DNA of 64,000 nucleotides from Obrimoposthia wandeli (taxonomy: Eukaryota). Location: contig CDROCS010000335.1 in NCBI GenBank assembly GCA_977020255.1, positions 248,001-312,000 of the forward strand. The letters are read 5' to 3'. Each line of letters starts with the position of its first letter. The stretch's first letter is position 1. Shown in pieces: positions 12,317 to 59,600 of the stretch. A model generated the notes under the pieces. That model made no database searches and was not told where the DNA came from. It saw nothing but the letters and a program-made list of their open reading frames with translations. The position numbers and the translations under genes were made by a program.

Positions 12317-13980
12317 AGGGGTATCACTGTACATTAAAATCGTGCATCTGTATAGAGTGAAATTTCGTGCTAGTGTGTCCAATCTAATACACCGACACCC
12401 CGAAGGGGAGTACCCCCACAAATATTTTTGAGTGTTACATGGAATGCAATTTTACAGCCTATCTCAAAAGTTATTAAAGAAGACTACAGGAATCCATATT
12501 GACCCCATCGACTTATCGTAGACGAGATTTCAGATAATACTTTTATATGAATGTGACTACTAAAAGGACATATAATAACATATTTTAGATAATTTAATTA
12601 CTACATGTATGTTAAAAGGACAAAATATGTAGGTCAGATTTTTACAATTTATAGAAGAAAAAATACAAGACAAAATTCCTTTTAATATATTTATTAAATT
12701 AATCAAATATAAAACACCATATTAGCTTCACTCAAAGTCCAAAGAAGCTGTATTTTCCCGTCATCAGCATAATATCCATTGAGACGTATTGAAATATATT
12801 AAAACTAGAGGAGTTCTTCATCTAAAATTGGAGCAATCAAATAACCTCAGTTATCTCTAAAAGCCAGACTGGGATCAGTTTCCAGCTGGAAAGAATTTCT
12901 TTCTTATACATAATCAGGTATGTAAAATCCCAAAATATTTTTCAATTGATCAATATTAGATGTTGTTAAAATTTCAATTAGATATTTATTTTTCACTTTC
13001 AATATTTTCACAGGATTCATAATTCGTATAATTTGATACCTCTTTAATGTATTATATGGTTTTTCTTTTGAATTTTTTTCCAGATAATGACACTTTTCTA
13101 CATTTCTCAGAAGAGGATCCATTTTAAAATAAAGAAATGGAAAATAAATGTTTATGAAAAAGGCATATTTAGATAAGATACAAATATTATGAATTAAAAA
13201 TAAATAAAACTGATTGCAATTTATTACATGCAAAATGAAAGAAACAAGGTTAAAGAAAACAAAATAGTTAAATCATATGGATATGGATCGTTCAATTTTC
13301 CCCATAAGTAGTTTTGTTATAATTTCATCTTTCTTGTAACCATAACGCCGAATTGTAACAGTCCATAGCTTCTTTTTTGGAAACGCACCAGCATAAATTT
13401 ATCTTCCATAGTCATCTAAAAATGCTGTATCAAATGCTCGGAATTAAAATTCAGTCTTATTGAATGTAAAACTTGGAACTTCCCTTTAAACTTTCTGTTT
13501 AAGATATTGAAAATCTGGTTTTTAAATATTTGATAGATAATAGCTGAACTTTATTCTTTCAATTGTCACAGGATTTACTAAAGCAATCAGCTGAGCCTTC
13601 TTCAAGAACATGACTTTGTTTTTGAAATATTGTTTCACTTTGGCATACATATTCTTATCCGAATCTTCAAACAATTCTAAATCTTCATAATCGCTTCATA
13701 TCTTTTGGCTATCTTCCATAATTGATAACTATCCTTGATATTAATGCATTTATTATGATTTGTTCTCCAATGACACATTTTCTTATACTAATTTGTAACA
13801 AAGACATAAATCTCATTGGTTTTGATTGAACTAAACCCATATTTAAAATTGAAATAGATTGGAAGAAATATATTAGACTTCAATCATCCAATTATAATAG
13901 GTTTGCAAAATATTTACAAGAAATGTGCAATAAAAGGGAAAGTTCAAACATATATAAAGAAGAATTTACAGAAAAAATAT
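12317..13980 (+). mobile_element. Polinton copy C: truncated left-end fragment, same orientation as copy A
   Basis: Collinear similarity to about 23190-24850: partial TIR with GAGTGAAATTTCGTGC at 12355, GAATCCATATTG...AGACGAGATTTCA, and ORF 12904-13233 (MDPLLRNV...LGFYIPDYV) paralogous to ORF 23626-23874. Confidence 0.85.
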
Positions 13981-14570
13981 TTAGAAAACATCCGGCAGAT
14001 CTAACCAAGTACTAAAACTCGAAACGGAGGATCACAATAGCTAGCACAGATCAGAACCGGACGAATATATCGTGATAAATTGAGAACAAGTAAACTAGTA
14101 AATAATAGTCATACAATATTGTAATAATCCATTGTAAACCGAAATTAAACAGTAATCATATAAACGCTGATTGATATTAATCAGTAATCATACTCTATTG
14201 TAATATTCTATTGTAACCTGAAATTAAACAGTAATCATATTCTAGGATAAATTGAACAAAAGGAATTTAACACGAATCATTAATAAATTGATACTCTTAA
14301 ACCACAATTGTTAAAAAAATCATATGTGAAAATAAGTTTTAAAAGTTAAGAAGTGTCGGCGTTAAAGAGGTAACCACCATAGTATTTGTAAATTCTCCAT
14401 CAGATAATTAGTAGTCAATTTTGATAGAACTTGTATATTCTAAAGTGTCACCTCTTGTTGAAGTCAAATATATTAAACCCAAATTACTCGAAAATAACAT
14501 ATATGTTTTAAGTAATTACACTTGATTTCAGACAGGTTACGAATACCTTTAAAACACTTTACAAGCCGAG

Positions 14571-20442: not shown

Positions 20443-20547
20443 AGTTATGTTTTCTATCGCAGACTTAATTCAAAACTTAGATTTTACAACACAATTTAAA
20501 ATTTGTTCATTAAAGATCAGTTCTTAAACAAATTAATGAAGGTATGA
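20443..20547 (-). repeat. 3' LTR of the Gypsy element (truncated; U3 end and PPT deleted)
   Basis: 10 mismatches in 105 nt versus 39769-39873; integrase codons (NATVNSYSKHSP) run almost directly into it. Confidence 0.85.
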
Positions 20548-22489: not shown

Positions 22490-23148
22490 AATTAAATTCT
22501 AAGAAATTTGCTAGCCATGTTTGAAATTGAGGACTGATTGGTTTTTTCGTCGTTCTTAAAAATACTAATGCTTTGATCTGTTCTTGCCAAAAATTCTGTT
22601 CTATATAAATATTGTTTGAAATGCATAGTAAATTCGTATACTGCTAAAAGTTCTTTTCTGGTAACACAATATTCTTTCTCATGGGAAATCAGATGTCTAG
22701 AAGCGTATGTAATCACATTTTCGTTTCTCATTTCATCAAGTTGGCTCAAAACTGCACCAATCGCACCAAAGCTTGCGGCTGTATCAATTATAAAATTTCT
22801 ATTTCGAATATAAGGAGCTGTTGATAATTTTTTTTCAGGATTGCAAAAATTGTTTTAAAATCTGGTGAGCATTGTATTGAATTCTTATCTCTGGATTAAA
22901 CTCTGGAATGTCGTCGGTGCTGTAACAAACCCAAATGGCATGCAATTAAAGCAAAATTGTCCTAATTTTGTACTGAAAGCCAATTTTGTCTGAGATTCAT
23001 TCTCTATATCTACCTGATAATAAGCTTATCCAATATCTAATGTCGTACATATTTTAGTATCACCTAGACAATCGAACAATAGTTGTGCATACAGTATGGG
23101 AAATGAAAACTTATTGGTTACAGTATTTAATTGTCTGTAGTCAACACA
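22490..23148 (-). pseudogene. Gypsy RT (middle) and RNase H; the YxDD half of RT is deleted
   Basis: CV|DYRQLNTVT, TLDIG*AYYQV, MPFGFVTAPTTFQ, then a jump to IDTAASFGAIGAVLSQ and YCVTRKELLAV. Confidence 0.9.
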
Positions 23149-23245
23149 AGTAGGTGGATGTGTCCGGTCTAATTCCCCCCCCACGGGGGGCTACCAATGT
23201 CCTTTAAAACCGTGTATGTAAGTGGAGTGAAATTTCGTGCATGTG
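23149..23245 (+). repeat. Left TIR of Polinton A
   Basis: AGTAGGTGGATGTGTCCGGTCTAAT...CTACCAATGTCCTTTAAAACCGTG...GGAGTGAAATTTCGTGCATGT is the inverted counterpart of the right end. Confidence 0.93.
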
Positions 23246-23625
23246 TTGAAAAATTGAAAAAACAACCCTCCACATTTTTAAAATTGTTACTTTGAAATTT
23301 ACCGCGAATCTCAAAAGAGGATAGAGAAGACCACGGGAATCCATATTGGCCCCGGCGGCTTATCGCAGACGAGATTTCAAATAATATGTGAATATATTAC
23401 CACTATTTTTTAATAAAGATTTTAGATTTTAGATTAATAAATTACTAAATGTTTTTGTTAAATATTTAGGTCAGATTTATAAGAGAAAAATTAGGTCAGA
23501 TCTATATAATTTAGAGGAGAAAAACAAAATACGAGTCAAAATTATTTTCAAAACATTTATTAAATCAAAAATAAAACACCATATTGGCTTCACTCAAAGT
23601 CCAAAGAGGCTGCATTTTCCTGTCA

Positions 23626-23976
23626 TCAGCAAAATATCCATTGAGACGTATTGATTTTTTTCCATAGTTCTTCATCTAGAATTGGAGCAATCACATATTC
23701 TAGATCATCTTTAAAAGCCAGACTGGGATCAGTTTCAAACTGGAAAGAATTTCCTTCATATACATAATCAGGAATGTAAAATCCCAAAATAATTTTCAAT
23801 TGATCAATATCAGATGTTGTTAAAATTTTGATGAGATATTTATTCTCCACTTTAGATATTTTCACAGGATTCATAACTCGTATAATTTGATGCCTCTTTA
23901 ATATATTACATAGGTTTCCTTTTGAAATTCTTTCTGTTGAATAAAAAATTCCTACACATCATAGAGGAGGATCCAT
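23626..23976 (-). CDS. Polinton hypothetical protein (left-end ORF1), one internal stop near its start
   Basis: ORF 23626-23874 plus upstream codons; a paralogue in copy C (12904-13129) conserves IMNPVKI.KV.NKYLI.ILTTS.IDQLK.ILGFYIPDYV. Confidence 0.6.
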
Positions 23977-24149
23977 TCTAAAATAAGGAAACTGATTAAA
24001 AAACAATGTTTTTAAAAAAATACATATAAGATACATATAAGATACAAATATTTAAAAATATAAAACTGATTATTAATTGCCAAATGAAAGAAACATAGTA
24101 AAACCGATTACAATTTATAACATGCAAAAGAAAAAAGTTAAAAAATAGA

Positions 24150-24680
24150 AATATGAGCACGTTCAATTTTCAACTTTGTTCCCATTTCATCTTTCTTGTA
24201 ACAATATAGTAGAATTGTTACAGTCCATTGCTTCTTTTTCGGAAACGCATAAACATCTATTTCTCTTCCATAGTCATCTAGAAAGGCTGCATCGGCTCCT
24301 CGGATATAAAATTCGTTCTTATTGAAAGTAAAATTTGGAACTGCCTTTTCAACTTTCTGTTTAAGATATTGAAAATCTGGTTTTTAAATATTTGATAGAT
24401 AATAGCTGAACTTTATTCTTTCAATTGTCACAGGATTTACTAAAGCAATCAGTTGAGCCTTCTTCAAGAATCTGACTTTGTATTTGAAATATTGTTTCAC
24501 TTCTTCATACATATCCTTATCCGATTTTTCAAACATTTCTAAATCTTCGTCACCTCTTAATATCCGTTGATTATCGTCCATCATTGATAATTGTCTTTGA
24601 TATGAATGCATTTACTGTGATTTGTTCTCCAATGGCGCATTCTTTTATACTAATTTCTAACAAAGAAATGAATCTCATTG
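24150..24680 (-). pseudogene. Polinton hypothetical protein (left-end ORF2)
   Basis: ORF 24384-24611 continues after a stop as KPDFQYLKQKVEKAVPNFTFNKNEFYIRGADAAFLDDYGRE; also present in copy C at about 13280-13830. Confidence 0.5.
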
Positions 24681-25299
24681 ATTAATATAACTAAAGCATT
24701 GAATTTGTTTGGACTAAATCCATATTAAAATCAAATTTGATTGGAAGAAATATATAATCCAATTATAATAGGTTTGCAAGATAATTACAAGAAACGTGCA
24801 ATAAAAAAACAGGTTCAGACATGTATAAAGAAGATTTTACAGAATACAATTTTAGTCTATTGAAACTCGTAAATATAAATGATAAAGGTAGAATAGAAAA
24901 TGAATAGAAACTGAGACAATATGTGAAAAAGTTTGACAATTTCACAGTTGTTATTTTTCTCACAGGTTAGTTTTTTCATTTTATTTTCATTTTGAATTCT
25001 TTTAGGAAATTGTCGTGTTATGGGATGCAAAATACCAATTTTTGAGTTCGAATTAACATTTAGAATTCGAATCACTGCAATACAATCAATCACGATTTCG
25101 GCTAATCTTGGGAAACAGATAAATCACACGTTATTCGAGAATTTAGAAATCGTACACAAATAAATAAAATTATAGCCAAATATTCATTAATTTATTTTTG
25201 TATTTCATCTACAATAGCTCTAACATTGTACATTTCAATAAGGAAACTTCTATGATAATATAAACAATATTAAAAATGAAAGAGTATATGTAATGGAGC

Positions 25300-25878
25300 T
25301 AAGTAAAAAATGCTGTATTTCAAATAGTTGGTCCCAGTGGAAGTGGAAAGACACATTTCGTATGTAAATTGTTGCAAAATGAATCTCTTTTCAAATCTAG
25401 TTTCAAAAATATTTATTGGCATCATGGTGGAGGAGGGGAAAGCGGATTAACCAAAACAGAAGTTTGGAAGTTGAAGGTAATAAAATTTATTGGCGGATTT
25501 GATGCAAATTGGTGTGAAAGATTGAAAAAATAAGATCTAATAATAATTGATGATTTGTATCAGGAGGCTAACAAGGAATCGGACTTTAATAATTTATTTA
25601 CAAAGATTGCAAGACATCGTGAAGTAACATTTATATTTATCACTCAAAATCATTTTCCCCAAGGAGGGCACCATAGAACAATAAATCTTAATGTACATTA
25701 CTTAGTTTTATTTAAAAATCCTAGAGATCAAAAAGTTGTAGATTTCGTGGCCAGACAGGCATTTCCTCAAAATAAGAACTTTCTAGTTGATTCATTCTAC
25801 GATGCTGCTAAACAAGCACATGGGTATATATATATATTGACTTTACACAAGCTTGCCCAGATGATTTACGTGTTTTAA
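25300..25878 (+). pseudogene. A32/FtsK-HerA-type genome packaging ATPase
   Basis: Walker A GPSGSGKT, Walker B LIIIDD, ARH, FIFITQN, HYLVLFKNPRD; in-frame TAA at 25531-25533. Confidence 0.93.
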
Positions 25879-26112
25879 CATACATATTTAATTCTAATGG
25901 AGTAACTGTTTATATAGAGAACAATTATAAAAAATAAATTTGCAATGCCTTTTAAGAAGTTGATAGTAAAACGTAAAGCAAAGCATAAGAAATCAATAAA
26001 AGAATCATTAAGAAAAAAGAAGTGAATAAATTAATCAAATCTGTAGTTAGAAATACAAGAAAACTTAAATGGCTTCGAATATAAACAATATTCAAATTGA
26101 ACCTTTTTTAAA

Positions 26113-26442
26113 ATGAAGAAAATACAAAGAAGCATATCCTATTTTAAAGCTTTGGTCAAAGCCTCTTCTCATAAGATAATGATTATTCTTAAAGCATTTC
26201 CATCTTTTGTTGTAGATGATTTATTGGAAGTTTTGTATAATATAGTTTTGGATCGAGTAAAAGTTGGAAAACGGAAAAATGTATTAAAGAAATATAGAAA
26301 AACTTTTCTAGGTATTGCTTATGTAAAAAGTAAAAAAATGAAACGAAATATTATTCTTAAACAGAATGGTGGTTTCATAGGGGCTGTTAATCCAGTTGTT
26401 GCTTCAATTATCAGTAGTATTATAGCTGCGACACGCTCATAA
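26113..26442 (+). CDS. Small basic virion-core-like protein with KQNGGF motif and hydrophobic C-terminus
   Basis: Lys-rich 109-aa ORF ending KQNGGFIGAVNPVVASIISSIIAA; this type of ORF is common in Polintons; also present in copy B at about 40845-41170. Confidence 0.65.
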   Translation: MKKIQRSISYFKALVKASSHKIMIILKAFPSFVVDDLLEVLYNIVLDRVKVGKRKNVLKKYRKTFLGIAYVKSKKMKRNIILKQNGGFIGAVNPVVASIISSIIAATRS

Positions 26443-26537
26443 ACAATTATTTCTAAAATCAGCTAAAGATAAGGGTGCTAACCCTACTTTACCTAAATTT
26501 AAATTTTCTATATATTCAAATTGTTGTAATGGAGAAG

Positions 26538-27556
26538 ATATGGTTCAATCCAAAAGATCCAATTGGCTACACAGGAGTTTCAAAATTATCAAAAAGAACA
26601 AAACAAAATTACAAGAAAACGCAGAAATGGCTGAGCAACCAGTTAGCCTACAGTCTGAACAAGCCGCTGAGAGGAAGGTTTCCAACTAGAGCTTACAAAA
26701 CCAGCGGTCCTAATAATTTATTGCAAATAGATTTGATGGAGATGATCCCATATTCTTCCATTAATAAGGGATATCGATATATTTTAACATGTATTGATGT
26801 ATTTAGCAGGTTTGCTCGTACAATTCCATTTAAAGCAAAGTCTTCAACAGCTATGCTTGAAGCCATAAAATAAATATTAAAAGAGGACATTCCACAAAAT
26901 GTGCAAACTGATTTTGGAAAAGAATTTTATAATAAACAAGTTCAATCATTATTTAAACAAAATAATATAAATCACTACTCTGTGTTTTTACAGTACAAAG
27001 CAGCAGTAGTAGAAAGATTTAATCGTACTTTAAGAAATCGAATAAAAAAGTATTTCACAAAAGAAGGAAATAAAAAATGGATCCAAGTTTTACCTAAAAT
27101 AATACATGCATATAATCACTCTGAACATAGAGGTCTCAAGGAAATGAGACCTGTTGATGTTAGTAATAAAAACTCTAGTGATATTAAGATAGACAGGAAT
27201 AAAAAAGAAAATATTAAAAAAGCTAAATATAAGAAAAATGAATATGTTCGAATTTCAAAAATTAGCTCTACTCCATTTATTAAAAAATTGATCAGAATTG
27301 GAGCGATGAAATATTTTGTATAAGTAAAGTTGTTCAAAAGAGTAATCCAATAATGTATACTATTAAAGATGCTGACAATAATATCGTTCACAGTAAATTT
27401 TACGAGCAAGAACTACAAGTAATATCAAATAAACCTAACGTTTTCCGTATTTAAAAAATATTAAAATCTAAGGGTACCGGTAAACATAAACAATACTTTG
27501 TTAAATGGCATGGTAATTCAGACCCAACTTGGATATCAGCATCTAATATAATATGA
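26538..27556 (+). pseudogene. Retroviral-like (rve) integrase with C-terminal chromodomain
   Basis: DDE triad in QIDLMEM, QTDFGKEF and VERFNRTL; tail QYFVKWHGNSDPTWISAS; internal stop at 26871-26873 and later frameshifts. Confidence 0.93.
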
Positions 27557-28565
27557 AGTCTATGTATATGGTGTTATCTAGTAACGGATGCCCGAAGACT
27601 CAACCAGATAATGACGCTAGTAGCTTTATTATCGATTGGCAAAATCCTATAAATCTCCAAGGAGAATGGGAAGCGGCTTTAACAGAATTTTCTTTTTATT
27701 ATTCTCCAATTACTATCAGAAAAAACTCACATATTTCGTTTACAAAAGAATTTGATCATGAAAAAACAACTGAAGTTGTGATCGGGTTTGATAGTAAAGG
27801 ACAATTCTATTACAATTGTATAGATAAAGAAGTGAAAGTTATATATGAAAATAACAAAGTCAGATTTAAAAATCGATTAAAATATCTTCAAGCTATTAAA
27901 ATTACATTTGAATCTAAAAAAGAAGCTCTTCAATTCAGTTTTGATAGTGAACAAACAGTAACTCGTAATAAATGGGATATTATCTCATCTAATTCGGTTA
28001 GAAATGTTCCTGGTAGAGTAGCAAAAGTGTTGTTACTTGAAACGAGACCAAAGACTGTAGTGGAACTGAAAAAGTTTTCAAAAGATTATAAAATAGATAA
28101 TGAAGTGAATTTATGTAAATTAATACAGAAGGAATGCAGTGAATATTTAACGTTTACAGTAAAGAGCAATATAAAACGGGTTTAATTTGATGATAAACTC
28201 GCTAAAAACCTCGGTTTAAACATAAATACCTTTGAAACCCATACAATAAAAACCATTAAAGCTAAAAAATAGAGCAAAACCTTATAATGCTGTTAATCCT
28301 TTATATATTTTTACTCATTTAATAGAACCAACGCTTGTAGAAGGACAACGAGTTCCACTTTTGAGAACAATATGGATATCTCAAAATCAAACTAATGATG
28401 GCAAAGTTATCGGTATTCGTATAGATCAACCAATTTATCTTTCAGTTGCTCTCTTTTCTATAAATAATATTGAAGTAAATTAGAGATGATTCCAGACAAC
28501 TAATAGATTTCACGTACGGAGCTAAGACAAGTTTAACAATACATTTAAGAAAACAAAACTGGTGA
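27553..28565 (+). pseudogene. Minor capsid (penton-like) protein
   Basis: MYMVLSSNGCPKTQPDNDASSFIIDWQNPINLQGEWEAALTEFSF (typical Polinton penton N-terminus); C-terminal LIEPTLVEGQRVPLLRTI and KTSLTIHLRK. Confidence 0.85.
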
Positions 28566-28936
28566 ATCCAGCAATAATTAAAGCTTATAGTCAAAGTCAA
28601 CAAGGTGGAGAATTACCATATTTGGTTGGTAAACAATATGGATCTGGCTGGCTTAGAAAATTAGGTAGATTTGCCTTTCCTCTTTTAAAGAAACTCGGGT
28701 GGTTTGTATCAAAATTAGGAAAGGACTTCCTTTCATCTAATGACAATAAACTAATACCAACTTCTAAGAAGCATGCACTTAATGAACTTGATAATGTTTT
28801 ACCTGACTTTGCTAATTTGATTAGAAAAGGTAAATCGAATAAAAGCCAAGAAGGTAGTGGATTTAAACGTAAAAAGAAGCAAAAAATTAATATAAACAAA
28901 CGTAAGAAAGTTGAAGGAACAATATTTGCAAAATGA
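28562..28936 (+). CDS. Small basic/amphipathic virion protein (QGG and GSG motifs)
   Basis: QQGGELPYLVGKQYGSGWLRKLGRFAFPLLKKLGWFVSKLGKDFL...GSGFKRKKK; GTG start overlaps the penton stop. Confidence 0.65.
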   Translation: MNPAIIKAYSQSQQGGELPYLVGKQYGSGWLRKLGRFAFPLLKKLGWFVSKLGKDFLSSNDNKLIPTSKKHALNELDNVLPDFANLIRKGKSNKSQEGSGFKRKKKQKININKRKKVEGTIFAK

Positions 28937-30161
28937 GTTGCGCCAAAACTGAATTGTGTATTTTTGATAAATCGCTTCCACAAGTAGTTGTAGATAGCTT
29001 TCTTTGAATAAATATTTCTAGTTAACTCAGTTTCAGGAACCACTTTAACCAATTTAGAATTTAATATTAATGGTTTCAATAGCGAGTATTTAGATTTGAA
29101 TGATACTTTGCTTTATGTTCAAATAAAAGTATTAAATCGGGATGGTACTAATTTAGAAAATAATGCCGATGTAACTGCTGTAAATTATCTCTTTAATTCT
29201 TTATTTAGTGATGCCATTTTTACTCTTAATCATGTCAAAATTGAAGGTAGAAATTCTTCCTATGCTTATAAAGCTTTGATTGAAAGTCTTTTGAATTATA
29301 GTACTGATACTTAAAATATTAATTTGGCAACCATTGGTTGTGATAAAACGGTTGCAACTCGCAAAGAATGGATTGCAGGTTCTAAAGCTTACGAAATGTG
29401 TGGGTCTTTGAGATTGAATTTCTTTGAACAACTGAAATATTTAAGTTTCGGTGTTAATGTACATCTTTCTTTGAAACGTAATAAATTAAATTTTTCTTTG
29501 ATAATCACAGACTTTCTAAAACCTAGACTTGATATTTTGGATGCAAAACTATATGTCCGAAGAGTTAAAACTGAGCAATCAGTTTTAATGGCACATAATA
29601 TAGGAATTGAAAAAAAACAATGCTTGTTATCCTATTAGAGAAATTAAACTTATAGCATACTCTTTGGGTAAGGGTACACAATCTTTTAATAAGTATCAAA
29701 TTTTTGGTGATGTAAGATTACCGAAATTCGTTTTAATTTCTTTTCAAAAAACTGCAAAGTTTCTAGGAAATTCTACAACAGATGTAACTTAATTTGACAA
29801 TCTTAATGTAGGTTCAGTGAAACTTTCAAGAAATACTGATTATCGTGAAACATATAAATCAGGTTTCGAAAGTAATGCTTATTCTTTGGCTTATACGCAA
29901 TCTATTATTCGGAATTAGGGTCAACTAGATAAAAATATAAACAATGATATTTCTTTCACTGAGTTTAAAAGCAACTGCCCGTTATTCACATTTGTTTTGG
30001 CACCAGACTTTGATATAAACCAATGCCAACTACCAAAGGATGGAAATTTACGAATAGATATTAAGTTCAATGCAGTTTTAACACATTCTACTACGGTGAT
30101 TATTTACGGAGTATTTGATTCGTAAATACAAATCAATAAAAACAGAACTGTCATATTATAG
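28933..30161 (+). pseudogene. Major capsid protein (double jelly-roll, PY/hexon-like)
   Basis: MSCAKTELCIFD, YLDLNDTLLYVQIKV, YAYKALIESLLNY, RLPKFVLISFQ, LFTFVLAPD, GNLRIDIKF; several TAA stops and frameshifts. Confidence 0.9.
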
Positions 30162-30199
30162 AATGTAGTAAGACATTTTTTAAATTTATATTTATTAAT

Positions 30200-30561
30200 T
30201 TTTAATTAGTTCAGTACAAGTACAAGAATCAGCAGAGAAGGTCCTGGGTGATAAATTCAATGGAGTTTATCTTATTGATATGATACCATTTTTTCAATCT
30301 GGAGATTACATTATCAATACTCATACTTCGAATTTAAAAGGAGAACATTGGATAGCTATTTATGTTAGAGAGTGGAAAATACATGATCCACTTGCAATGC
30401 ATTATCCACACAAACATGTTTCGATTATTCAAAAAGGACGAAGAAGAGTATTTTACAGCAAGATACAATATCAGGATCCTGCGACGAGAAATTGTGGATA
30501 TTTATGTATTTATGGTTATCGTTGCAAAACGAATAATGTGTTTTATTTTGAAATTTTTTAA
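30200..30561 (+). CDS. Adenain/Ulp1-like cysteine maturation protease
   Basis: IINT...GEHWIAI (His), HDPL (Asp), QYQD (Gln), NCGYLC (Cys). Confidence 0.88.
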
Positions 30562-30779
30562 ATCCCTACAAAATATAAGAGTAAAATAATAAAAGGCATA
30601 TGACGAAATTTTTTTAATACATTTATTAAACAACACATCACAACGAGATCTGTCAGCAAAAATAAGGCACAACCTAAAAAAGTATTGAAATAACAAAAAG
30701 TTAGAGTCAAGGTGCCATAAGGATCTAAAATTTTAATAAACTAAAAAAAAAAGAAAAAAAAGAAAACCGTTTAAATTGG

Positions 30780-33700
30780 AAGTGTCCATAAGACAGGCTA
30801 GCGTTCTTTTCTACCCAAAAGCGCTTGTCGTCATTACTACTCAAATCGATTTTTGTTGATTTATGGGAATACATTTGATGGGCTCTTGAAATAAATCTAG
30901 TTTGCTCAACGCTTTCAATACACCCAGTATCATAAACTTTCCGGTATGCCTCATGTGTAAGATTGTTTCTTCCCACACCCTTTGCTCTCATTGAACATGT
31001 AAAATTAGATGCATGTAAACTGTAGCATTTAGGGCGTAGGAAAATACAATCATCGTACGAAACCTGTACCTTGCTTCCCTCCTTAAATTTCTCGATAATA
31101 TCCTTTAAACTCATAGAGTGTAGAGGATGGTTAACGGGATATTTATGGGTATCACATAAGTTGTCCCTAAACATTGCCGGTAATAATTGATTTTCTAAAC
31201 TGACATTTTTAGATTCTACAAAGAAAGAGTCAGTATTCCCAGCTGCGATTTTGATCTCACAATTAAATTCTTGTCGATATTTCTCTAATTCTATGTATTG
31301 AAGTTCGTACATTCTGAGTTTAGAAATGTCTAAAACCGTTTGACCTATATAACTCGGTCGATCGAGACAAATACTCTGTTTTCCTAATGACACTGCTACC
31401 AAGCCATCTGCAATTGTAAAACTACACTTGAAGTTGTACTTGTTAGTATTAGTTATTAGTTTACGCTCATCACTGCAAAACCGTAGACAAATGCGTTTCC
31501 ACAAGTACTCTACAGTTTTTCCAAAGATACTATTACTTTTTAACTTGTAAAAATCCCGATCGAATTTGCTAGTGGCCAAATTACGTTTTCTAGAATTCTT
31601 CTCAATGTAGTCTTTAAACACAAAGCTTTGATTGAAACGTATAGCTTATGCTTATAGCACGATGAATTCGAGTAACTTTCGCTCCCAAATTTAAGTACAA
31701 TTGAAGAAGCCGCCAATGCACCACATAATTCAATTTGTCTTCATGTGTTAACAATAATTTCTTAATCTTTGAATTAGGTGAGGATTGATGAAGTGGTGCT
31801 ACTGGAAGATCCTCTAATTTATCATGCACATTAGGAGGGATTTTTAAGTCAACCTCAACCAAATAGCCGACGTTTGATGAAACTGTATCAAAAGTAGCCA
31901 AATCTGTCATCAACTTATTCATTTCTTCCTCATCATAAACCCACTTAAAGTTGGCATGAGGTAGAGGTTGAGTAAGCGCCCACCCATACAAATTATTAAT
32001 GTCGATGTACAGAATCTCCGTGGATTGATTTTTGACAACATGATGTTTGTTGACAAAAGTCAATCCACCGCGTATGCCATAATCATATATTTGATACATC
32101 GCGGGATCTTGCAGTAACTCGATATTAATTTTAAGAGATTTTATTGCTGTTACCCAAGGTAAACTAAAGAAATGCATGGGATCTAGCCCATCTTCTGCTA
32201 AAGATTTTACACGAAAGGACTCAAAAACATCAGCAAAAAGATAAATGTCTAAGTTCATATAATAAAGCATATAATCTAGAAGATTTCGACAATTATTCGC
32301 CCAAAATGAACGGGCCTCATTATAGTCTTGGAAACTTACACCCTCGAATTTAGTTATGGGTGGGATTTCTGTACTAGTTTCTAAATCTGCAAAGGTTTTT
32401 GCAAATTTATACGGAAAAATCCCCTTCTCATTAACCGAAGCTGGGAACACTGACTGTGTAATTGGCCATGCATTTAAAGATGCCGTTAATTTTTTTAAGA
32501 ACCCCCTCAAAAACTGCAGAGAATCTATGAATCTTAAACTGCAGAATTCAGTATATGCAGTTAAAGATAAATATTTCTCTGAAGTTTGAAATATACATGG
32601 AATTTTCCAAGAGCTTAATGTACCCAACGCATATTTAAGTATATGATGCAAGTCATATCCTTTGAGATTATGAAACACAATGGGAATGCGTGGTTTTTTA
32701 GGGAGTCGACGGCCAAGGTTACAGAGGTTGCACGCTGCTCCCAATTATCGCCCGTAACATGATCGTGATCTCTGACTAACTTAGACTGGGTTCCACACAA
32801 ATAACATAATCTACAAAAATTAAAATTAACCCAGTCTATGCCTGTCATGATCATTGCTTGATGAGCATTAAGATCATACCACGGTTGGACAATTGTAGTT
32901 CTTAATTCTTCTAATTTTAACATAAAATCTAAAATACAATTTGGAGCGGAAAATTTATGATACTGTGTAATATTGGGGCCTAAGAATAGTAGTCCTGTCG
33001 AAGCCGGTAGGTGAATACTCTCATATTGGTAATGCAATGCTAGAATTGACTCAAAATCAGCATACACCCTGAATTCCACGGGTATGCATTTTGCCCAATC
33101 CCTGATTTTTAAATCCTTATCCTTAGGCATCAGGATTCAGTGTACATAATGTCAGATGTTTTCTGTAAGAGAGCTTGGATCAGAATCCATGCAAACATCT
33201 GTGACACCACTTAAACCTTATCCTAACCGGTAAGGCTCCATTATCTAAATTTAGAAGACGATCTAAATTGGGAATTGCAGCATAATGGAATTTTTTATTA
33301 TGTTCGAGCAAAAGTAAGTTGACCGGAGTCCCCTCATTATTGCTCCTATAAATTACATCTACAAAAGGATTTTAAAAAATTTCTTCATCTGTTACATTAA
33401 CTGGGATATCAGTATTATATTTGAATACATTAATACTCAAGTTATTAAGATGTTCAAATCTTGATATCGCAGTTAATTTAACAGGAAAATATATTCCATG
33501 ATACGGCAATTCATTTAAAAAGGGGTATATTTACTGACACGCGCTCTGTGCTCAGTAATTACATCCCTTTTGAGGATGGCCAACACGCTATACAGGAAGC
33601 AAAGGTTGTCACTGTTTTGTACGTTAACAATGGAACGTGAAAGTTGAAAAGATCTAGGTGAAGGAATGTATGAACTCTCCGAAAGATATATCATGTCAGT

Positions 33701-34129
33701 GAACTTTATTAAAAGAAAGCTAACATCGTGAATTCTAACTAGAGTCCATCCACTACTTAACTCGCTATAATTAGCAATTTTTTCATCTAGGTTTCTTCCA
33801 ATTTCAGTTATAAAATTATTGTAGAAAACAGTTGCTTTATGTGAAATTACCCAAGTTTTAGTCTACTCGTTGACATTTTTAAACTGCACTGTTGCGCAAA
33901 ATTGAACCTTAGCCTGTCCTAATTTAGTCACTTCTGATTTTAAAAGACTTTCAATATTTGAATCTACACCTACATTTAATAAAATTTCCTTTTCTAATGA
34001 CACTTTAACTATAACATATTTATTATTTAGGTGATACTCTTTAGTAGCACTGTTTTCTCTACGTTTTTTTGGTGGGACCTTATTAAGAAATTGGCCTCGC
34101 CTCTTTCTTCCTACAGTTGCTGACAAACC
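30780..34129 (-). pseudogene. Protein-primed DNA polymerase B with N-terminal domain and embedded endonuclease VII-like zinc domain
   Basis: Exo motifs VYADFES, FHNLKGYD, FIDS, KGIFPY; Pol motifs YIDINNLYG, KLKSNSIFGKT, AGNTDSF (D to N), RPKCY, RAKGV; CYLC...RDHDHVTG...GAACNLCNL; upstream SGW and NVQNSDNLCFLYSV. Broken by stops and frameshifts. Confidence 0.95.
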
Positions 34130-35282
34130 TCACCCTAATTGAACGGGAAGACAACTATTTATATTAAATGTTTGTGCTGCCGATGTTAAGGCAATGGTAG
34201 CTGATGTGAAAGGGGCTGCTGAGACAACTAATGGTGGTGCTGCCGACGTTGAGGCAATCGTAGCTGATGTAGACGGTGCTGCTGTAGTAGATGCTGCCGC
34301 AGATGTTGAGACAATTGCAGTTGTAGATGCTGCATTTGAGGTTGGAGAAGATGAGGTAGTAGATGACATTGCCGACGAAGAAGCGGCTGTTGTAGAGGTT
34401 GATGTTGCATCTGCTGAAATAAATATATTAAAAAAAATTATTACCTCTAAGGCGTGAAAACATCGATGTAAGCACTCGCGATGGGGAGGCATAGATGTCG
34501 TAGCGGATGACGGGTGTATCAAGGTATTTCCTGAATAAAAAAAAAATATATATATATATATAATTACAATTTTAAAAAAATAATCAGAAAAATAATAATA
34601 AAAAATACCTAATGAAGGCAATCCAACTGTAGCTGGTTGAAAGTCCTCTTCATTGACGGAATTCCATCCAGCTATCGCCCGTTAACTCGACGAAATCGGA
34701 TTCCTCGATGGTCTCCAACCAGCTGTTGTCGCTCGTCTGAGGCTGCTCCATCTCGAAATCTGACTGGGTGATATTTTCCATCCAGTCATTGTTCGAGAAT
34801 TGGGTTGCTGGCACCAATTCCTCAAAATCTTCTTGGGAGATATCGTCCATCCACTCATTGTTAGTCATTTGAGTGGCTGAGGCAGCTGTAGAATTAGGAG
34901 ACAGGAGAGAAGGACCAATCGCAGGACCGTAAACGGGTTGAACGACTGCAACTGGAATAGGAGCAGGAGCTGGAGCAGCCTGCGAATCGTGCACCAATTG
35001 CACGATAGCCATCTTCTTGTTGTTGGCTGTGAAACAGGATAAGGAATCTCGATGTTCACCGAAGAAGTCTCGAAACTCCTTCTCCTCCATTGTTCTGCAG
35101 AAGGGGCAGACGAAGAATTGAAGCCCATGAGACTTTGTCTGATAGTAGGCGGACATTATCTCCATGCAGGACTCTCCTCCATGCGGAGCCGAAGCACCAC
35201 AATATGCTGGAAACAGGTTACACGTAATCTAAAAATATATATTAATAAAGAAATAAAAAATATAGTTTCTTACCATAGTCAT
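34130..35282 (-). CDS. Spliced Polinton coding region: Cys/His cluster, acidic WxxxIxxxDF repeats, Ser/Thr/Ala-rich tract; possibly the 5' exons of pPolB
   Basis: GT-AG introns at 35229-35273 (45 nt), 34531-34608 (78 nt) and 34414-34444 (31 nt); ATG at 35280-35282; TATATAA-like box upstream at about 35325-35331. Confidence 0.6.
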
Positions 35283-35499
35283 TATTTCAAATAGTTGGGA
35301 ATTAAAATGAAGAAAGAGTTTGCTTATATACTAAATTTTATGCACACATGCTCTTTTCTTATTGGATGAAAAAATTGAATTTATTCTACCACTGAGAAGG
35401 ATTGTTTATCTGTTATTGGTTGATAATATTATTTTTAAATATTTTTTATTCCTCCAATTAAAAAGATTGTACATTTGTAATTGTAATGGATGGAAATTT

Positions 35500-36030
35500 T
35501 ATTTTGTAAATAATGAATTTCTCCAATTAGAAGAATTGTTTATCCACATTTCAACCAATAATAAGATAGACTTAAACATTTTCTTATATGTGCAATGGTC
35601 ACCATGATCACGATATGGATAGGAAATATTTTGTGGAATTTTTAATAGATGATCACGTGAAATATTTAAAGTATTCAACCTCAAAATTGGAAAATATTTT
35701 TTTAAAGTCTTATACTTTTTGCCATCCATTTCATCTAAAACATAAAAAATTCCATTTTCAATATCAAAATTAGATTTTATTGTATCGAAAATACATATTT
35801 CACAAAAGCCTTATGTCCTTCTTTCCATTTTAATAACTGAAAATAATTAGTTAGATATAAATTAGTAAATGTTTTCTTATAATCTATACTCCTAAACGGA
35901 ATATCTATATGACATATGAAATGCAAAGGATGAAAACGTCGCATACATCCATAATACATAATTCTTTTATAATATAATCTTCATTTTTGTTAATGAAAGC
36001 CTCAAAATCTATAATATATTCTTGTATAAT
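35500..36030 (-). pseudogene. DEDD-exonuclease-like Polinton accessory protein
   Basis: YIIDFEAF...YIIKELCIMD, then after a frameshift NLYLTNYFQLLKWKEG, and a C-terminal H...HC; resembles a conserved Polinton ORF family. Confidence 0.55.
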
Positions 36031-36429
36031 TACCCAAATTTGTAGCAAATCCCTTTGTTTATAACGAATAAAAAAGCCATTAATCAAAAATTTATTAAAA
36101 TAACAAAGTACTCAGGATTCATTTTTTCATGTTAAGATTGGTATATATTGTCAATTCTCCTTTGAATATTAAAATAAATCATATTAAATGTAAACATACC
36201 TAAATATTTCGAAATTAAATTACATTTTTTTTTCCGGAGTATCATTTTTTGAGAAGTAATTTTTTTTATAATCTTCCATTAAATCTGGAGATAATTTAAT
36301 GTATAATTTATTCCAATTTATTTTATTATCCATTTTACAAAAAAACATTATATCTAAAATTGTTTATATTTAAACAATTATGTAACATAAAATTAATCAA
36401 TAACGACAAAAGAAAAAATAATATTTAAA

Positions 36430-36739
36430 AATTAATTTTTTTGTAGAAGGACCCTCTTCCAGTTTAATCCGGAGGATTTTCTTTCTTGCAGCTCACCGAT
36501 CTACCTCCATCTCCTCTCTTCTTTTTTCAATCAGTTTCTTTTTTTCCAATTCCATCTTTTTGTTCCACTCCACGATCTGTTGTCGTTCTGCTAGCCGCCT
36601 GTCCTGAATCTCCACCCGACGATTTCACTCGGTCGCGACAGCTGTGTAGAGATTCTGATTGAGGACCCTCTTTCTTAAATCTCCTTTCTTCTCATTTCTC
36701 CTGATGTTTTCTTCTATATTCGTCACGAGACTTTTCATT
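36430..36739 (-). pseudogene. Charged coiled-coil accessory ORF
   Basis: MKSLVTNIEENIRRNEKKGDLRKRV...ERQQIVEWNKKMELEKKKLIEKKREEME with two in-frame TGA stops; TATATATA upstream near 36790. Confidence 0.45.
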
Positions 36740-37032
36740 TAAATGAATTCCATTTTTTAATTATGAAGAGGTTAATAAATTTGAACCTATATATATAAAT
36801 TTAAGATATTTTTAATCCAATCACATTCAATTAAATGATATATTTTTATTTATCAAATGACAGTTTAATAAATCTATAACTAATCACATTCGAATAAGTT
36901 AACTACTTTTTTCATCTTGATATTTTAATAAACTTAAAGATAGTATTTTAATATTACTAAATTTGTAAAAGAAATTTAAAATTTATAAAGTTTTTTTAAA
37001 TAAATATAAAGAAGAAAACGAAACACATGAAA

Positions 37033-37510
37033 TTATTTTTTATAAATTATATTATTAAAAATCTTTACAAAGTCATCATTGGGATCATCCTCATCGAAAT
37101 CCCTCCGACTGCGTTTTATTAGAGAAAGCGGTACTGGCTCCTTCTTCTTTTGCCATCCAGGTTTCTTTTTCGGCTTCACCGGTTGTTGTGCAGTAATTGC
37201 CGTTCCCTGAGGTTTTGGCAATAGTTGCCGCAACGTTTTGGGAGGAGGTGCAGCCGATGTTGATGGCCCCGACATATAAGTAGTTGCCTTCCTCTTCCGA
37301 GAGCTTTCTTCAGTTTCTACTCCTTCTCACGCCGAAGCTTCTCACGGCATCCTGCTGCCCTCGAGAATCTGGAAGCATAGCCAGTGTATCCAGTTCCGCC
37401 AGGAAATCGTCCATTTCAGCTTCATCCCAGGCCCTCTTCAAGTTCTGGCTGGTTGTTGGACGAGGAGAAGCAGTCTTCCAAGCCCTGGCCAAATTTTGGT
37501 TTATACTCAT
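37033..37510 (-). CDS. Two small Pro/Lys-rich and acidic accessory ORFs next to the right TIR
   Basis: ORFs 37310-37510 and 37033-37275 are GC-richer than their flanks; TATATA boxes at about 37588-37613 upstream. Confidence 0.4.
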
Positions 37511-37818
37511 GAAGCCGGTGATGTCTCCTGCAGGCGTCGTTGACTCGGTGGCGGACTAATCTCAATCGGAGAGACTAGGATCCTCTCGTATATATTTTTG
37601 CGACCCTATATATATGTATTGCTCGTCAGGCCACTGCGGGCCCGAAGGGCGCGCGTTGGCCTTTAGATGGCCTCTCAGGCACTTCCTCACTCTGAGGGAG
37701 TACTATGAGATTTTCAATTTTAAAGGGTGTTATATGGGGTTTATTAGATTTTTGGATGTTGGGCGGCGGGGGGGTAGAAAATTTCACTCTACACACATAC
37801 ATGAAATTTCACTCTACA

Positions 37819-37924
37819 TACATGCACGAAATTTCACTCCACACACATGCACGGTTTTAAAGGACAATGGTAGCCCCCTGGGGGAAGGGGGAGGGGTGGA
37901 TTATACCGGACACACCTACCTACT
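37819..37924 (-). repeat. Right TIR of Polinton A
   Basis: Ends CCGGACACACCTACCTACT; followed by TSD AACACA. Confidence 0.93.
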
Positions 37925-38170
37925 AACACACATTCGAATAGTATTGTCTGGCTTTTTCACAATGACTAATGGCGAGTTCCAAGGACTTTCACAACGCCTA
38001 ATTACGTTTACTTTGAGTACCTTTTAAATCATTTCATCAACTTGGTTTTCTAAAGGCATCGGTTGTCGTCTAGGATTTTGGCTCATATGATCAGCAATAG
38101 TCTCAATCTTATGATAGACAATTTTGGTATATCCTAGATTAAATTTAGAACTCATAAATATTTTTCAAAA
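37925..38170 (-). pseudogene. Gypsy RT N-terminus
   Basis: VIRRCESPWNSPLVIVKKPDNTIRMCV joins DYRQLN at 23142 across the Polinton insertion. Confidence 0.92.
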
Positions 38171-39760: not shown

Positions 39761-39769
39761 TGGTCGCCA
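39754..39769 (-). promoter_or_regulatory. Primer-binding site of the Gypsy element
   Basis: TGGCGACCACGCCGAA directly follows the 5' LTR and shares its last T. Confidence 0.7.
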
Positions 39770-39899
39770 GTTATGTTTTCTATCGCAGACATAATTCAAG
39801 ACTTAGATTTCACAAAACAATTTATAGTTAGTTCATTAAATATCAGTTCTTAAACACATTAATGAAAGTATGATAATTCTGGTTTCCGATTACATAACT
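39769..39899 (-). repeat. 5' LTR of the Gypsy element (131 bp)
   Basis: 8-bp inverted ends AGTTATGT...ACATAACT; matches 20443-20547. Confidence 0.88.
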
Positions 39900-57200: not shown

Positions 57201-57206
57201 TCTGTG

Positions 57207-58443
57207 TCTTGTTTGTAATTAATAGCAAGTTATTAATAGTTGATTTTGATTACAGAAAACAGTTGTAAATGACTACAAACTAGTTTTATTGATCGATTGA
57301 TTTGTCCTATGAAAATGTAAGAGCATATTTGACAATCACAGCACAATTTGTCGATCAACAAACTCAAAAATTAGCTTAAATGTGGAATTTTGGATTATTA
57401 AAAATCGAAGCAAATGTAACAATCTCATATTTTTATCCAATTAGATAAGTTTTGTCTCAAGTATAAATGTAAATTTCTAAAATTCACATCAAAATTGAAA
57501 TACTTAAATCTTGCTTGTCGTTAAGTATAGGACTTCTGAACTATATCCACATACCAATCTTCTAGAATTTCAAGGTAAGGATACACATTCTATCATATGA
57601 AGTGTTAAGGTTAGTATCTTGTTTGTAATTAATAGCAAGTTATTAATAGTTGATTTTGATTACAGAAAACAGTTGTAAATGACTACAAACTAGTTTTATT
57701 GATCGATTGATTTGTCCTATGAAAATGTAAGAGCATATTTGACAATCACAGCACAATTTGTCGATCAACAAACTCAAAAATTAGCTTAAATGTGGAATTT
57801 TGGATTATTAAAAATCGAAGCAAATGTAACAATCTCATATTTTTATCCAATTAGATAAGTTTTGTCTCAAGTATAAATGTAAATTTCTAAAATTCACATC
57901 AAAATTGAAATACTTAAATCTTGCTTGTCGTTAAGTATAGGACTTCTGAACTATATCCACATACCAATCTTCTAGAATTTCAAGGTAAGGATACACATTC
58001 TATCATATGAAGTGTTAAGGTTAGTATCTTGTTTGTAATTAATAGCAAGTTATTAATAGTTGATTTTGATTACAGAAAACAGTTGTAAATGACTACAAAC
58101 TAGTTTTATTGATCGATTGATTTGTCCTATGAAAATGTAAGAGCATATTTGACAATCACAGCACAATTTGTCGATCAACAAACTCAAAAATTAGCTTAAA
58201 TGTGGAATTTTGGATTATTAAAAATCGAAGCAAATGTAACAATCTCATATTTTTATCCAATTAGATAAGTTTTGTCTCAAGTATAAATGTAAATTTCTAA
58301 AATTCACATCAAAATTGAAATACTTAAATCTTGCTTGTCGTTAAGTATAGGACTTCTGAACTATATCCACATACCAATCTTCTAGAATTTCAAGGTAAGG
58401 ATACACATTCTATCATATGAAGTGTTAAGGTTAGTATCTTGTT
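57207..58443. repeat. Tandem triplication, 3 x 410 bp, apparently identical
   Basis: Units start at 57207, 57617 and 58027; a 7-nt TCTTGTT remnant at 58437. Confidence 0.95.
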
Positions 58444-58734
58444 AGTAGGTAGAAGAATGGAGTCTAGATCACTTGACCCCCCCCCCCTGTGTGCGCACAC
58501 AATGTTAAAGGATTTTTTTTTCAACATAAGGGTGTCTTGCCACACCATAAGGGTATATGTTGCCTCACCATAGAAATGTCACACCATGAAGGTATATGTT
58601 GACTCACCATAAGAATGTCACACCATAAGGGTATATGTTGCCTCGCCATAAGGGTCTGGCTCAGAAAAGTTAACATTGGGGGGAGGGGGGAAGGGTCAAG
58701 TGATCTAGTCTCCACCCTTCTTGTGTATACCACT
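58444..58734. repeat. Inverted-repeat-bounded 291-bp module with an internal minisatellite
   Basis: GGAGTCTAGATCACTTGACCC (58459-58479) versus GGGTCAAGTGATCTAGTCTCC (58693-58713); AGT...ACT outer ends; CCATAAGGGT-type repeats inside. Confidence 0.75.
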
Positions 58735-59600
58735 ATGGTCGTCCATAGATCAAAGGGTCAAGGTCAGTTTTGACTTGAAGGTTTTAAGGTATGGTCATGA
58801 CCGTCTATGGTTGGCCATCACATCTAAAGGATCATGGACGTCCATAATTCAAAGGGTCAAGGTCAGTTTTTACTTGAAACTTTGAAGGTATAATTAAGGT
58901 CAACTATGGTTGGCCATCACATCTAAAGGGTTGTGGTCGTCCATAGGTCAAAGGGTCGGACTCAGTTTTGACTTGAAACTTTGAAGGTATAATTAAGGTC
59001 AACTATGGTTGGCCATCACATCTAAAGGGTCATGGACGTCCATAATTCAAAGGGTCAAGGTCAAATTTGACTTGAAACTTTGAAGGTATAATTAAGGTCA
59101 ACTATGGTTGGCCATCACATCTAAAGGGTTGTGGTCGGTCATAAATCAAAGGGTCATGGTCAGTTTTGACTTGAAACTTTGAAGGTATAATTAAGGTCAA
59201 CTATGGTTGGCCGTCACATCTAAAGGGTCATGGACGTCCATAAATCAAAGGGTCAAGGTCAGTTTTGACTTGAAACTTTGAAGGTATAATTAAGGTCAAC
59301 TATGGTTGGCCATCACATCTAAAGGGTCATGGACGTCCATAGGTGAAAGGGTCGGGCTAAAAACAAAGTCAAGTTTAAAATATCAAGGTTTTAGTACATG
59401 GTTGGAATCATCTTTAGAAGACAAATTCAGTCATAAAGTATGGTCGGTCATATATGAAGGGTTCGGGATATAGACCAAATCAAGTTTTAAATGTCAAAGT
59501 TTTAATACATGATTGTATTCATCTTTAGAAGACGAATTCATCCATATATGTATGGTCGTCCATAGATGAAGGGTTAAAGAAAAGTTGGAATTTCATAGTT
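58735..59600. repeat. About 99-bp satellite (about 6 good copies, then degenerate copies)
   Basis: Units start at 58735, 58834, 58933 and onward; AAAGGGTCAAGGTCAGTTTTGACTTGAAAC...CTATGGTTGGCCATCACATCTAAAGGG. Confidence 0.92.

Follow-up and report, generated by a model that had tools for sequence, protein, structure and literature searches.

The window, by which we mean the whole 64,000-nucleotide stretch of DNA analysed, is AT-rich eukaryotic DNA, probably from an animal to judge by its intron style and element types, and carries a decayed 14.8-kb Polinton/Maverick element at 23149-37924. The element ends in AGTAGG, its terminal inverted repeats (TIRs; 23149-23244 and 37820-37924) are 83% alike, and it is flanked by a 6-bp target-site duplication (TSD; 23143-23148 and 37925-37930). 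Its DNA polymerase (pPolB) matches PF03175 with an E-value of 3e-17, above the cut-off, and a fragment of an rve integrase was found at E 4e-4, below the Pfam cut-off; both the terminal repeats with their TSD and the pPolB-integrase pair of a Polinton/Maverick are thus present. Broken ORFs with recognisable motifs and without a Pfam match are candidates for the packaging ATPase, the protease and both capsid proteins, major and minor.

Three levels of nesting span 15883-42993 of the window: the Polinton at 23149-37924 sits inside a gypsy-type LTR element (direct repeat 20443-20547 and 39769-39873; RT-RNase H, integrase zinc domain, protease and zinc knuckle), which itself sits inside an older inverted Polinton copy. 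This older copy is 87-89% identical to the Polinton at 23149-37924 and covers only 27379-31937 and 25120-27388, not the region upstream of pPolB discussed here; a third Polinton fragment, at 12448-13984, matches the left end of the element. By the right TIR lie GC-rich broken ORFs with basic and acidic low-complexity content (37033-37555 and about 36450-36750, minus strand), two of which were tested and gave no Pfam match; they are possible further accessory genes. A 103-aa ORF fragment, also without a Pfam match, is found at 35499-35810 on the minus strand, directly upstream of the TATA-like box described below. Elsewhere in the window, a host gene (2400-7950, minus strand) has frame-keeping introns of 40 and 82 nt; by eye we take it to resemble an RBM26/27-type RNA-binding protein, and four of its fragments gave no Pfam family. 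Tandem arrays at 57204-59600 and 61500-64000 comprise AT-rich satellites, a set of 99-nt units repeated six to seven times, and three units of 410 nt that are the same over 300 nt or more.

The pPolB gene lies on the minus strand and is dead, with four frame switches and four in-frame stops, or about eight breaks in 3.35 kb, when compared with intact relatives (given P numbers below). Its terminal-protein (TP, or D1) domain at 33692-34024 (minus strand), which contains the stop 33865-33863, was identified by a structural model and fold matches. Residues 56-142 of the model have a pLDDT of 70-86, and the best solved-structure match is the little-finger domain of Pol IV (4ir1; Z 8.1, rmsd 2.6, 93 aligned), with Y-family polymerases in nine of the top 12 structure rows. 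Ser126 is invariant in six of six sequences. The domain thus has the PRD1-like TP fold, the match to the LF/PAD of Y-family polymerases and the Ser/Tyr in the helix 2-strand 4 loop that define D1. Among viral proteins, the best structural match of the TP piece is A0A7D4VFN9 (E 1.7e-6). In the vOTU-like domain (33285-33610, minus strand), alignment to P0003 places a Cys motif near 33610-33596, a His near 33287 and a frameshift at about 33516; this part of the model is of low confidence, and the Cys and His motifs are known from the alignment, their putative catalytic roles being taken from the accessible part of Krupovic et al. 2024 (bioRxiv 10.1101/2024.03.18.585575). An imperfect 96-nt palindrome, 75% self-complementary, lies within the vOTU coding region at 33389-33484. 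The rest of pPolB, comprising the exonuclease and polymerase (30782-33130, minus strand), was traced by PF03175 and by tblastn with P0003 and P0022 and has further frame switches.

Predicted exons upstream of pPolB

An ATG at 35282 on the minus strand opens a frame that runs in register into the TP domain of pPolB once three segments are removed. The initial annotation had described ATG ACT ATG followed by introns of 45, 78 and 31 nt, and we indeed observed GT-AG segments of these sizes, their splicing being predicted. A TATA-like box at 35324-35330 (minus strand), 48 nt upstream of the ATG and the only TATA[AT]A match in 35500-35283, would serve as the promoter. The coding part of exon 1 (35274-35282, minus strand) has the three codons ATG ACT ATG and supplies the sole Met before the first Cys of the module described below. 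The predicted introns, all GT-AG and on the minus strand, are intron 1 (35229-35273, 45 nt, phase 0, AT 0.89), in which an in-frame stop prevents read-through; intron 2 (34531-34608, 78 nt, AT 0.92), whose length is divisible by 3 and which, in the window copy, has one frame free of stops; and intron 3 (34414-34444, 31 nt, or 34 nt using a second AG at 34411; AT 0.90). Between the latter two lies exon 3 (34445-34530, minus strand, 86 nt), and the exons around the GT-AG segments have a GC content of 0.47-0.50.

GT and AG stand at the edges of all three AT troughs with P ~0.0002 when letters are shuffled within each trough; taken singly, the 78-nt and 31-nt segments give P values of 0.04 and 0.11. 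Applied to the other strand of this region, the same GT-AG/AT filter retained two segments, as against three here, so that the filter is not unique, and the GT-AG pattern by itself is no proof of introns. Intron 1 is the best supported of the three by the sequences compared, because of its in-frame stop, the late position of the next Met and the position of Met in homologs. If it were not spliced, the first Met would be residue 22, past the first Cys/His cluster; in all eight homologs with a complete first module, a Met precedes the first Cys by 2-7 residues, as exon 1 would supply. Two further candidates were discarded: a 47-nt intron before the protease ORF (30168-30214), of which the GT is missing in the window's second copy, and a GTGAG overlapping the TGA at 34133 as a donor, for which the listed downstream acceptors (34009, 33970 and 33934) are, by eye, out of phase.

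To other copies the region was compared through contigs aligned on 33450-35420, which came from three runs of one sample of organism A, possibly the source of the window itself (36,724-58,673 contigs per run), together with seven marine metagenome contigs. The alignment under-counts gaps, a clear pPolB frameshift at 33516 appearing in only 6-17%, so that its shares are unreadable. Length variants were found within intron 1. As weak evidence, no splice-dinucleotide variant was among the best 40 of the 192 variant rows, and no intron-skipping joint was among the 15 listed of 334 joints, in contigs of unstated library type. The ends of P0008, P0010, P0015 and P0017, which are rich in F/I/L/Y, may hint at introns in relatives.

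Behind the Cys/His module, the translation continues into a Pro/Ala/Val-rich spacer (34866-34982, minus strand), and P0019 has a similar spacer after its own module. There follow four acidic repeats of the pattern W-x3-(I/V)-x4-F (34636-34859, minus strand), with 20 D/E against one K/R in 72 residues. Of the four to five repeats first noted, the translation bears out four, three of them whole, with I-x4-F in each, and the fourth split over two frames near 34662; a fifth was not seen. Other copies show skips across this region in the aligned contigs. The pattern was found in 0 of 21 relatives, and on this comparison the repeats are lineage-specific. The kinesin W-acidic motif was tried on them and does not match.

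Exon 4 encodes a Ser/Thr/Ala linker (34172-34413, minus strand) with internal duplications of 63 and 36 nt. Its NCN codons, previously called near-invariant, are strongly favoured (67 of 80 codons in 34411-34172, and 69 of 93 up to the TGA) without being invariant. In this frame GC3 is 0.25, compared with 0.32 in pPolB, third positions being AT-biased in both. The offsets of the duplications are multiples of 3 and their copies differ mainly at third positions; a 6-nt deletion at 34405 occurs in other copies, in 19-20% of the aligned depth, a share subject to the reservation above. It is likely that the NCN frame is the coding frame of exon 4, because of the pPolB-like GC3, the in-frame duplications and the 6-nt deletion. 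That this frame is open says little, since a C at each third base keeps three frames largely stop-free. Downstream of the linker lie a Q-x-G-x-G motif that includes a TGA (34127-34141, minus strand), a candidate protease site, and two NLS-like basic clusters, RKRR and KKRR (34058-34108, minus strand); a basic cluster precedes the TP in all five TP-bearing relatives listed.

The Cys/His module and its relatives

The module, of about 70 residues, occupies 35004-35228 (minus strand) and is supported by homolog clusters, a leave-out profile, conserved columns and a model. It is predicted to contain two zinc sites, C-C-H-C followed by CPxC...H-x2-H, the copy in the window being without the last conserved His. 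When exon 2 was run in a full HMMER scan, 16 homolog clusters came up (E 4e-14 to 4e-4); none matches outside residues 1-108, and between them they have 26 module instances. CPxC, F, H-x2-H and F are kept in 24-26 of these 26, and the upstream Cys and Tyr in 20-23. The window module scores 72 bits against a profile made without it. Two or three modules each are present in P0007, P0010, P0014 and P0018, and P0010 and P0014 also have ordinary C2H2 fingers, so that module copy number and partners vary.

Database searches returned little for the module. Pfam gave no family for window exon 2 and only sub-threshold ribbon or finger matches for the modules of relatives, and the classical C2H2 zinc finger of Pfam (PF00096) was not recognised in it. 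Searches of PDB sequences and PHROGs gave nothing useful, the ESM Atlas held no usable match for exon 2 or the P0003 N-terminus, exon 2 found no match among longer proteins, and residues 1-330 of P0003 retrieved only P0003 itself. All 18 clusters looked up are unnamed. The module model (pLDDT 77) consists of a helix, a hairpin, a finger-like half and a second helix. Fold searches with it yielded nothing at E<=0.001, whether in PDB or BFVD, and a best Z of 2.8; its second half, which may fold like a C2H2 finger, aligned weakly with Kaiso (33 columns at rmsd 2.6, E above 4). Blank fold searches do not make the fold of the module new. The module family appears, from these sequence searches, to be undescribed.

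In four relative clusters (P0003/P0021, P0009/P0022, P0011 and P0020), the module shares one ORF with TP or pPolB, and two of the four include full-length pPolBs. When the TP/vOTU piece of the window was used as the query, two proteins were returned, P0003 and P0004, so that P0003 was found through TP/vOTU and not through the module. P0003 is an unbroken pPolB of 1369 aa whose polymerase core is 43% identical to that of the window, the closer of the two, and whose N-terminus has a basic cluster preceded by a run of Ser and, ahead of that, by two and a half modules. Compared directly by BLASTP, exon 2 and P0003 reached only E 0.04, and it was the leave-out profile that settled the relationship: with P0003 kept out of the profile, its two full modules reach 28 and 39 bits, the shuffled maximum being 11 in 2000. 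P0004 scores negatively on the module profile and has ordinary C2H2 fingers at that place before TP. Among the 16 module homologs, TP follows the module in the same ORF in three, P0009, P0011 and P0020 (62, 48 and 44 bits), and P0022, a cluster mate of P0009, is a pPolB of 1286 aa. The other 13 have no TP in the ORF; many of them are on short contigs or end in intron-like residues. P0019, with 559 aa of module, spacer and acidic region and no TP, counts against a universal module-TP fusion as far as these sequences go. No related locus was found in the viral or metagenome contigs searched.

Stops, frame breaks and rival readings

The spliced frame is interrupted by stops at 34652-34650, 34132-34130, 33865-33863 and 33517-33515, of which 33865-33863 is absent from ~99% of the aligned depth. 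Each of the three organism A runs has loose ends that pile up at 34662/34663 from either side (31-54 contigs per row) and mark a one-base length difference. We take this frameshift and the TGA that follows it as one feature (34650-34663, minus strand), the TGA at 34650 being most likely a by-product of decay in the window copy, because the fourth acidic repeat splits over two frames at 34662/34663. Given this frameshift, a single family-wide frame requires a second, compensating break, and the NCN bias does change frame in the middle of exon 3, near 34490; codon bias alone points to that break, which none of the contig rows listed shows.

The TGA at 34132-34130 occupies the second variable slot of Q-x-G-x-G. 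As first noted, the frame continues past it into the NLS-like clusters and the N-terminal region of pPolB, which the spliced translation bears out. The pPolB frame lacks a Met all the way from 34129 to 33694, past the TP; since the TP has no Met of its own, it must be translated from upstream. The evidence at this TGA is mixed. A contig from a second study spans 34066-34167 ungapped; 46 contigs of run X3 differ by one base in length at ~34132, which puts the linker and pPolB out of register there, and two divergent records cross the site with net length offsets of 2 and 5 bases. A substitution at 34130-34132 was not among the best 40 of the 192 variant rows. Conservation of this TGA in all copies, which the initial annotation had named as an observation that would speak against a fusion, was in no case seen in the aligned contigs. 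An AATAAA found 106 nt beyond the TGA, at 34024, could count against a continuous gene, but the pPolB coding DNA contains four. The break rate of pPolB predicts about 2-3 breaks in the 1.0 kb of upstream exons, and three are seen or inferred. Both stops, at 34130 and 34650, are most likely decay of the window copy.

Taken together, we consider it probable that the region is the spliced 5' end of the Polinton DNA polymerase gene, encoding an N-terminal arm fused to TP-vOTU-pPolB, with the stops arising from decay. The GT-AG segments, their common frame, the module family, the fusions in relatives and the TP fold are the basis of this reading. The frame-keeping introns of 40 and 82 nt in the host gene speak for it too. 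The suggestion that pPolB may be a spliced fusion with a zinc-binding module is thereby upheld as regards the fusion, since relatives have the module in one ORF with TP or pPolB; the splicing is predicted.

A separate spliced regulatory gene, which had been thought equally possible, is in our view unlikely, the stop at 34650 following a frameshift at which other copies differ. Such a gene would end before the NLS, with the start of pPolB supplied by alternative splicing, for example from exon 1 to the AG at 34156-34155, where an AT trough does end in an AG at 34155. It would account for the one-base offset of the 46 X3 contigs, although the second-study contig crosses the 34130 site ungapped, and for P0019 and P0023, which have the module and an acidic region without TP, whereas four relative clusters have the module fused to TP. 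The offset at 34662, taken alone, would set exon 4 in a Gln/His/Leu frame with a stop at 34230; however, it is the NCN frame that shows an element-like third-position bias and in-frame duplications, and Q-x-G-x-G arises only in the linker frame. Coding just 9 nt, exon 1 resembles the adenovirus leader as presented in the accessible portions of PMC5744146 and PMC2794291, which would suit a shared leader. No LxCxE or CR1 motif was found in any frame of the exons, which speaks against the separate gene.

Still less probable than a separate gene is that, of the three introns, only the first is real. The segments of 78 and 31 nt would then be stretches of AT-rich, low-complexity DNA inserted into a disordered linker and either read through or otherwise skipped. 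In favour of this, the length of the 78-nt segment is divisible by 3, a genomic frame stays open over both segments from 34681 up to the TGA at 34130, AT-rich GT-AG segments exist at places without support for an intron, and the 31-nt segment is smaller than either of the host introns found (40 and 82 nt). Against this stand the sharp GT and AG edges of both troughs (AT 0.90-0.92), at the single P values given above, and the composition of the read-through of intron 2, which is 84% F/I/L/Y/N/K, unlike the linkers of relatives. A captured host gene, that is, intron-bearing cargo as in nematode Mavericks that is in frame with pPolB by chance, would fit the exon GC of ~0.49 (0.33 in pPolB) and the high-GC, intron-bearing Maverick cargo published in the accessible part of Widen et al. 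(bioRxiv 10.1101/2022.07.12.499685), but it is highly improbable, being largely refuted by P0003 and P0022. Also against it, the only identified context of the module is pPolB or TP (four clusters), all 18 clusters looked up are unnamed and the TP lacks its own Met.

Proposed mechanism and comparison with known systems

If the region is the spliced 5' end of the pPolB gene, transcription from the TATA box at 35330 and host-type splicing would give one precursor of ~1,450 residues, made up of the 3-codon start exon, the double-zinc module, the four acidic repeats, the Ser/Thr/Ala linker and TP-vOTU-polymerase. Krupovic et al. 2024 (bioRxiv 10.1101/2024.03.18.585575), in the part accessible, hypothesised that vOTU cuts between TP and vOTU. 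After such a cut, the arm would stay on the TP that primes replication and would be bound to the genome ends, where the zinc module could bind DNA or chromatin. The acidic aromatic repeats, in which the spacing of Trp, Ile and Phe is constant, might recruit a host factor with a basic cleft. By analogy, the lead candidate for this factor is RPA, a host ssDNA-binding protein whose recruitment would suit strand-displacement synthesis; a coactivator is the next candidate, and we put forward both only tentatively. An acidic activation domain fits the composition of the repeats equally well.

The adenovirus protease trims pTP to TP. In a similar manner, the maturation protease of the element might cut at Q-x-G-x-G and leave the NLS and TP on the packaged DNA. 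The motif has three matches in the six frames of the element (shuffled mean 0.49, maximum 3 in 200), and in P0004 and P0020 it stands 6-10 residues before the basic cluster, for which the chance is ~0.002 per 30 residues. A small basic ORF (28526-28936, plus strand) between the putative minor and major capsid genes has two Q-x-G-x-G, each followed by a basic or amphipathic stretch; from its sequence, this ORF is likely a protease-processed core protein, and the two motifs in it suggest a maturation-protease site. Cleavage at Q-x-G-x-G seems to us a serious possibility, if not quite an even one, because the motif does not fit the adenain consensus and is missing before TP in three of the five TP-bearing relatives. 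That consensus is (M/I/L)xGxG or L(L/R)GG in the accessible part of Welch et al.; the window motif has Gln in place of M/I/L, and we found no match to (M/I/L)xGxG or (M/I/L)xGG.

More speculatively, and on balance we doubt it, an animal Polinton lineage may have as its replication protein a spliced, protease-trimmed, pTP-like precursor, in which a hitherto undescribed double-zinc domain and tandem acidic repeats that bind a host factor ride on the genome-linked TP during replication and are cut off at Q-x-G-x-G at particle maturation, and alternative splicing from the shared three-codon leader can give an arm-less polymerase or a free regulator.

Polinton core genes have been described, and searched for, as intronless, and pPolB as starting with TP and vOTU. 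With a spliced N-terminal arm, annotation from ORFs would cut such polymerases short and overlook elements, and this Polinton lineage would need the host spliceosome. The module is a compact family, tied to protein-primed replication, that has no counterpart in Pfam, among PDB sequences or in the fold libraries consulted. Through it and Q-x-G-x-G one can test what a Polinton TP takes along to the ends of the genome, and how far back the logic of adenovirus pTP extends. The weight of these points is tempered by the database precedent for zinc fingers before TP and by the dead state of the window copy. In searches of the literature, mainly of openly accessible articles, no description turned up of a Polinton pPolB that is spliced or armed with a zinc module, nor of a Polinton GxG cleavage site.

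The pPolB domains D1 and D2 described in the accessible text of Krupovic et al. 2024 agree with those found here, with a TP fold close to the Pol IV little finger, a Ser preceding Gly in the loop that joins helix 2 to strand 4, a vOTU-like region with Cys and His, and the polymerase; in contrast to them, the window adds ~330 residues before D1, from four predicted exons. The words 'zinc', 'intron' and 'splic' have 0 occurrences in the text of that paper (bioRxiv 10.1101/2024.03.18.585575). A fusion of pPolB to a helicase is known, as given in the accessible part of Haro et al.

Alpha-class adintoviruses are similar in having a PolB with PF03175 and an N-terminal OTU-like region, the latter a candidate in the window, and an rve integrase in the element (Starrett et al. 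2021, PMC8502044, accessible sections), and the window element is consistent with the Alpha class. A0A7D4VFN9, the protein of Drosophila-associated adintovirus 2 that matches the window TP piece structurally, is named C2H2-type. With the C2H2 fingers of P0004, it shows that zinc domains ahead of TP have precedent; unlike that protein, the window module has no Pfam C2H2 finger and comes with acidic repeats and predicted introns. The adintovirus 'Oncoid' genes, as far as the same sections of PMC8502044 describe them, also lie upstream of PolB and have CxxC, acidic stretches and CK2-type sites, as the window exons do, whereas the latter have one CxxC only and are fused to pPolB in relatives. Oncoids are defined by LxCxE, CR1 or both next to paired CxxC. 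We found neither LxCxE nor CR1 in the three frames of exons 2-4, and 21 relatives lack LxCxE in their first 330 residues; by these defining motifs the region is not an Oncoid.

Intact vertebrate and nematode Mavericks share with this element the TIRs, the 6-bp TSD and core genes in two oppositely oriented blocks, as far as the accessible descriptions go. Genes of intact vertebrate Mavericks have no introns according to the accessible portion of Barreat and Katzourakis 2021 (PMC8097293), and the available part of Widen et al. (bioRxiv 10.1101/2022.07.12.499685) places introns in cargo and describes core genes as intronless; in contrast, the predicted introns here sit in the polymerase gene. Introner insertions in dinoflagellate elements are mostly post-integration in the account of Gozashti and Corbett-Detig, in its accessible part.

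For the acidic repeats, the nearest parallel is in RPA70N-binding motifs, which are likewise short and acidic, come in more than one copy and space Ile and Phe by five residues; in the RBM-A of PrimPol these are I517 and F522 (Guilliam et al. 2017, PMC5457501, accessible part). In the window the repeats do not preserve the Asp that RBM-A has two positions behind Ile, and this is a resemblance only.

Adenovirus offers a parallel to the start of the gene. Its pol and pTP share a spliced 9-bp ATG leader (PMC5744146, PMC2794291, accessible portions), so that in E2B, as is predicted here, the start codon of a replication protein lies on a 9-nt coding exon. The likeness to pTP would extend to a precursor arm before the priming domain and, in the window, to a Gly-rich candidate protease site. 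In contrast to adenovirus as those sources present it, the TP and polymerase of the Polinton are one chain, and the predicted introns measure 31-78 nt, not kilobases.
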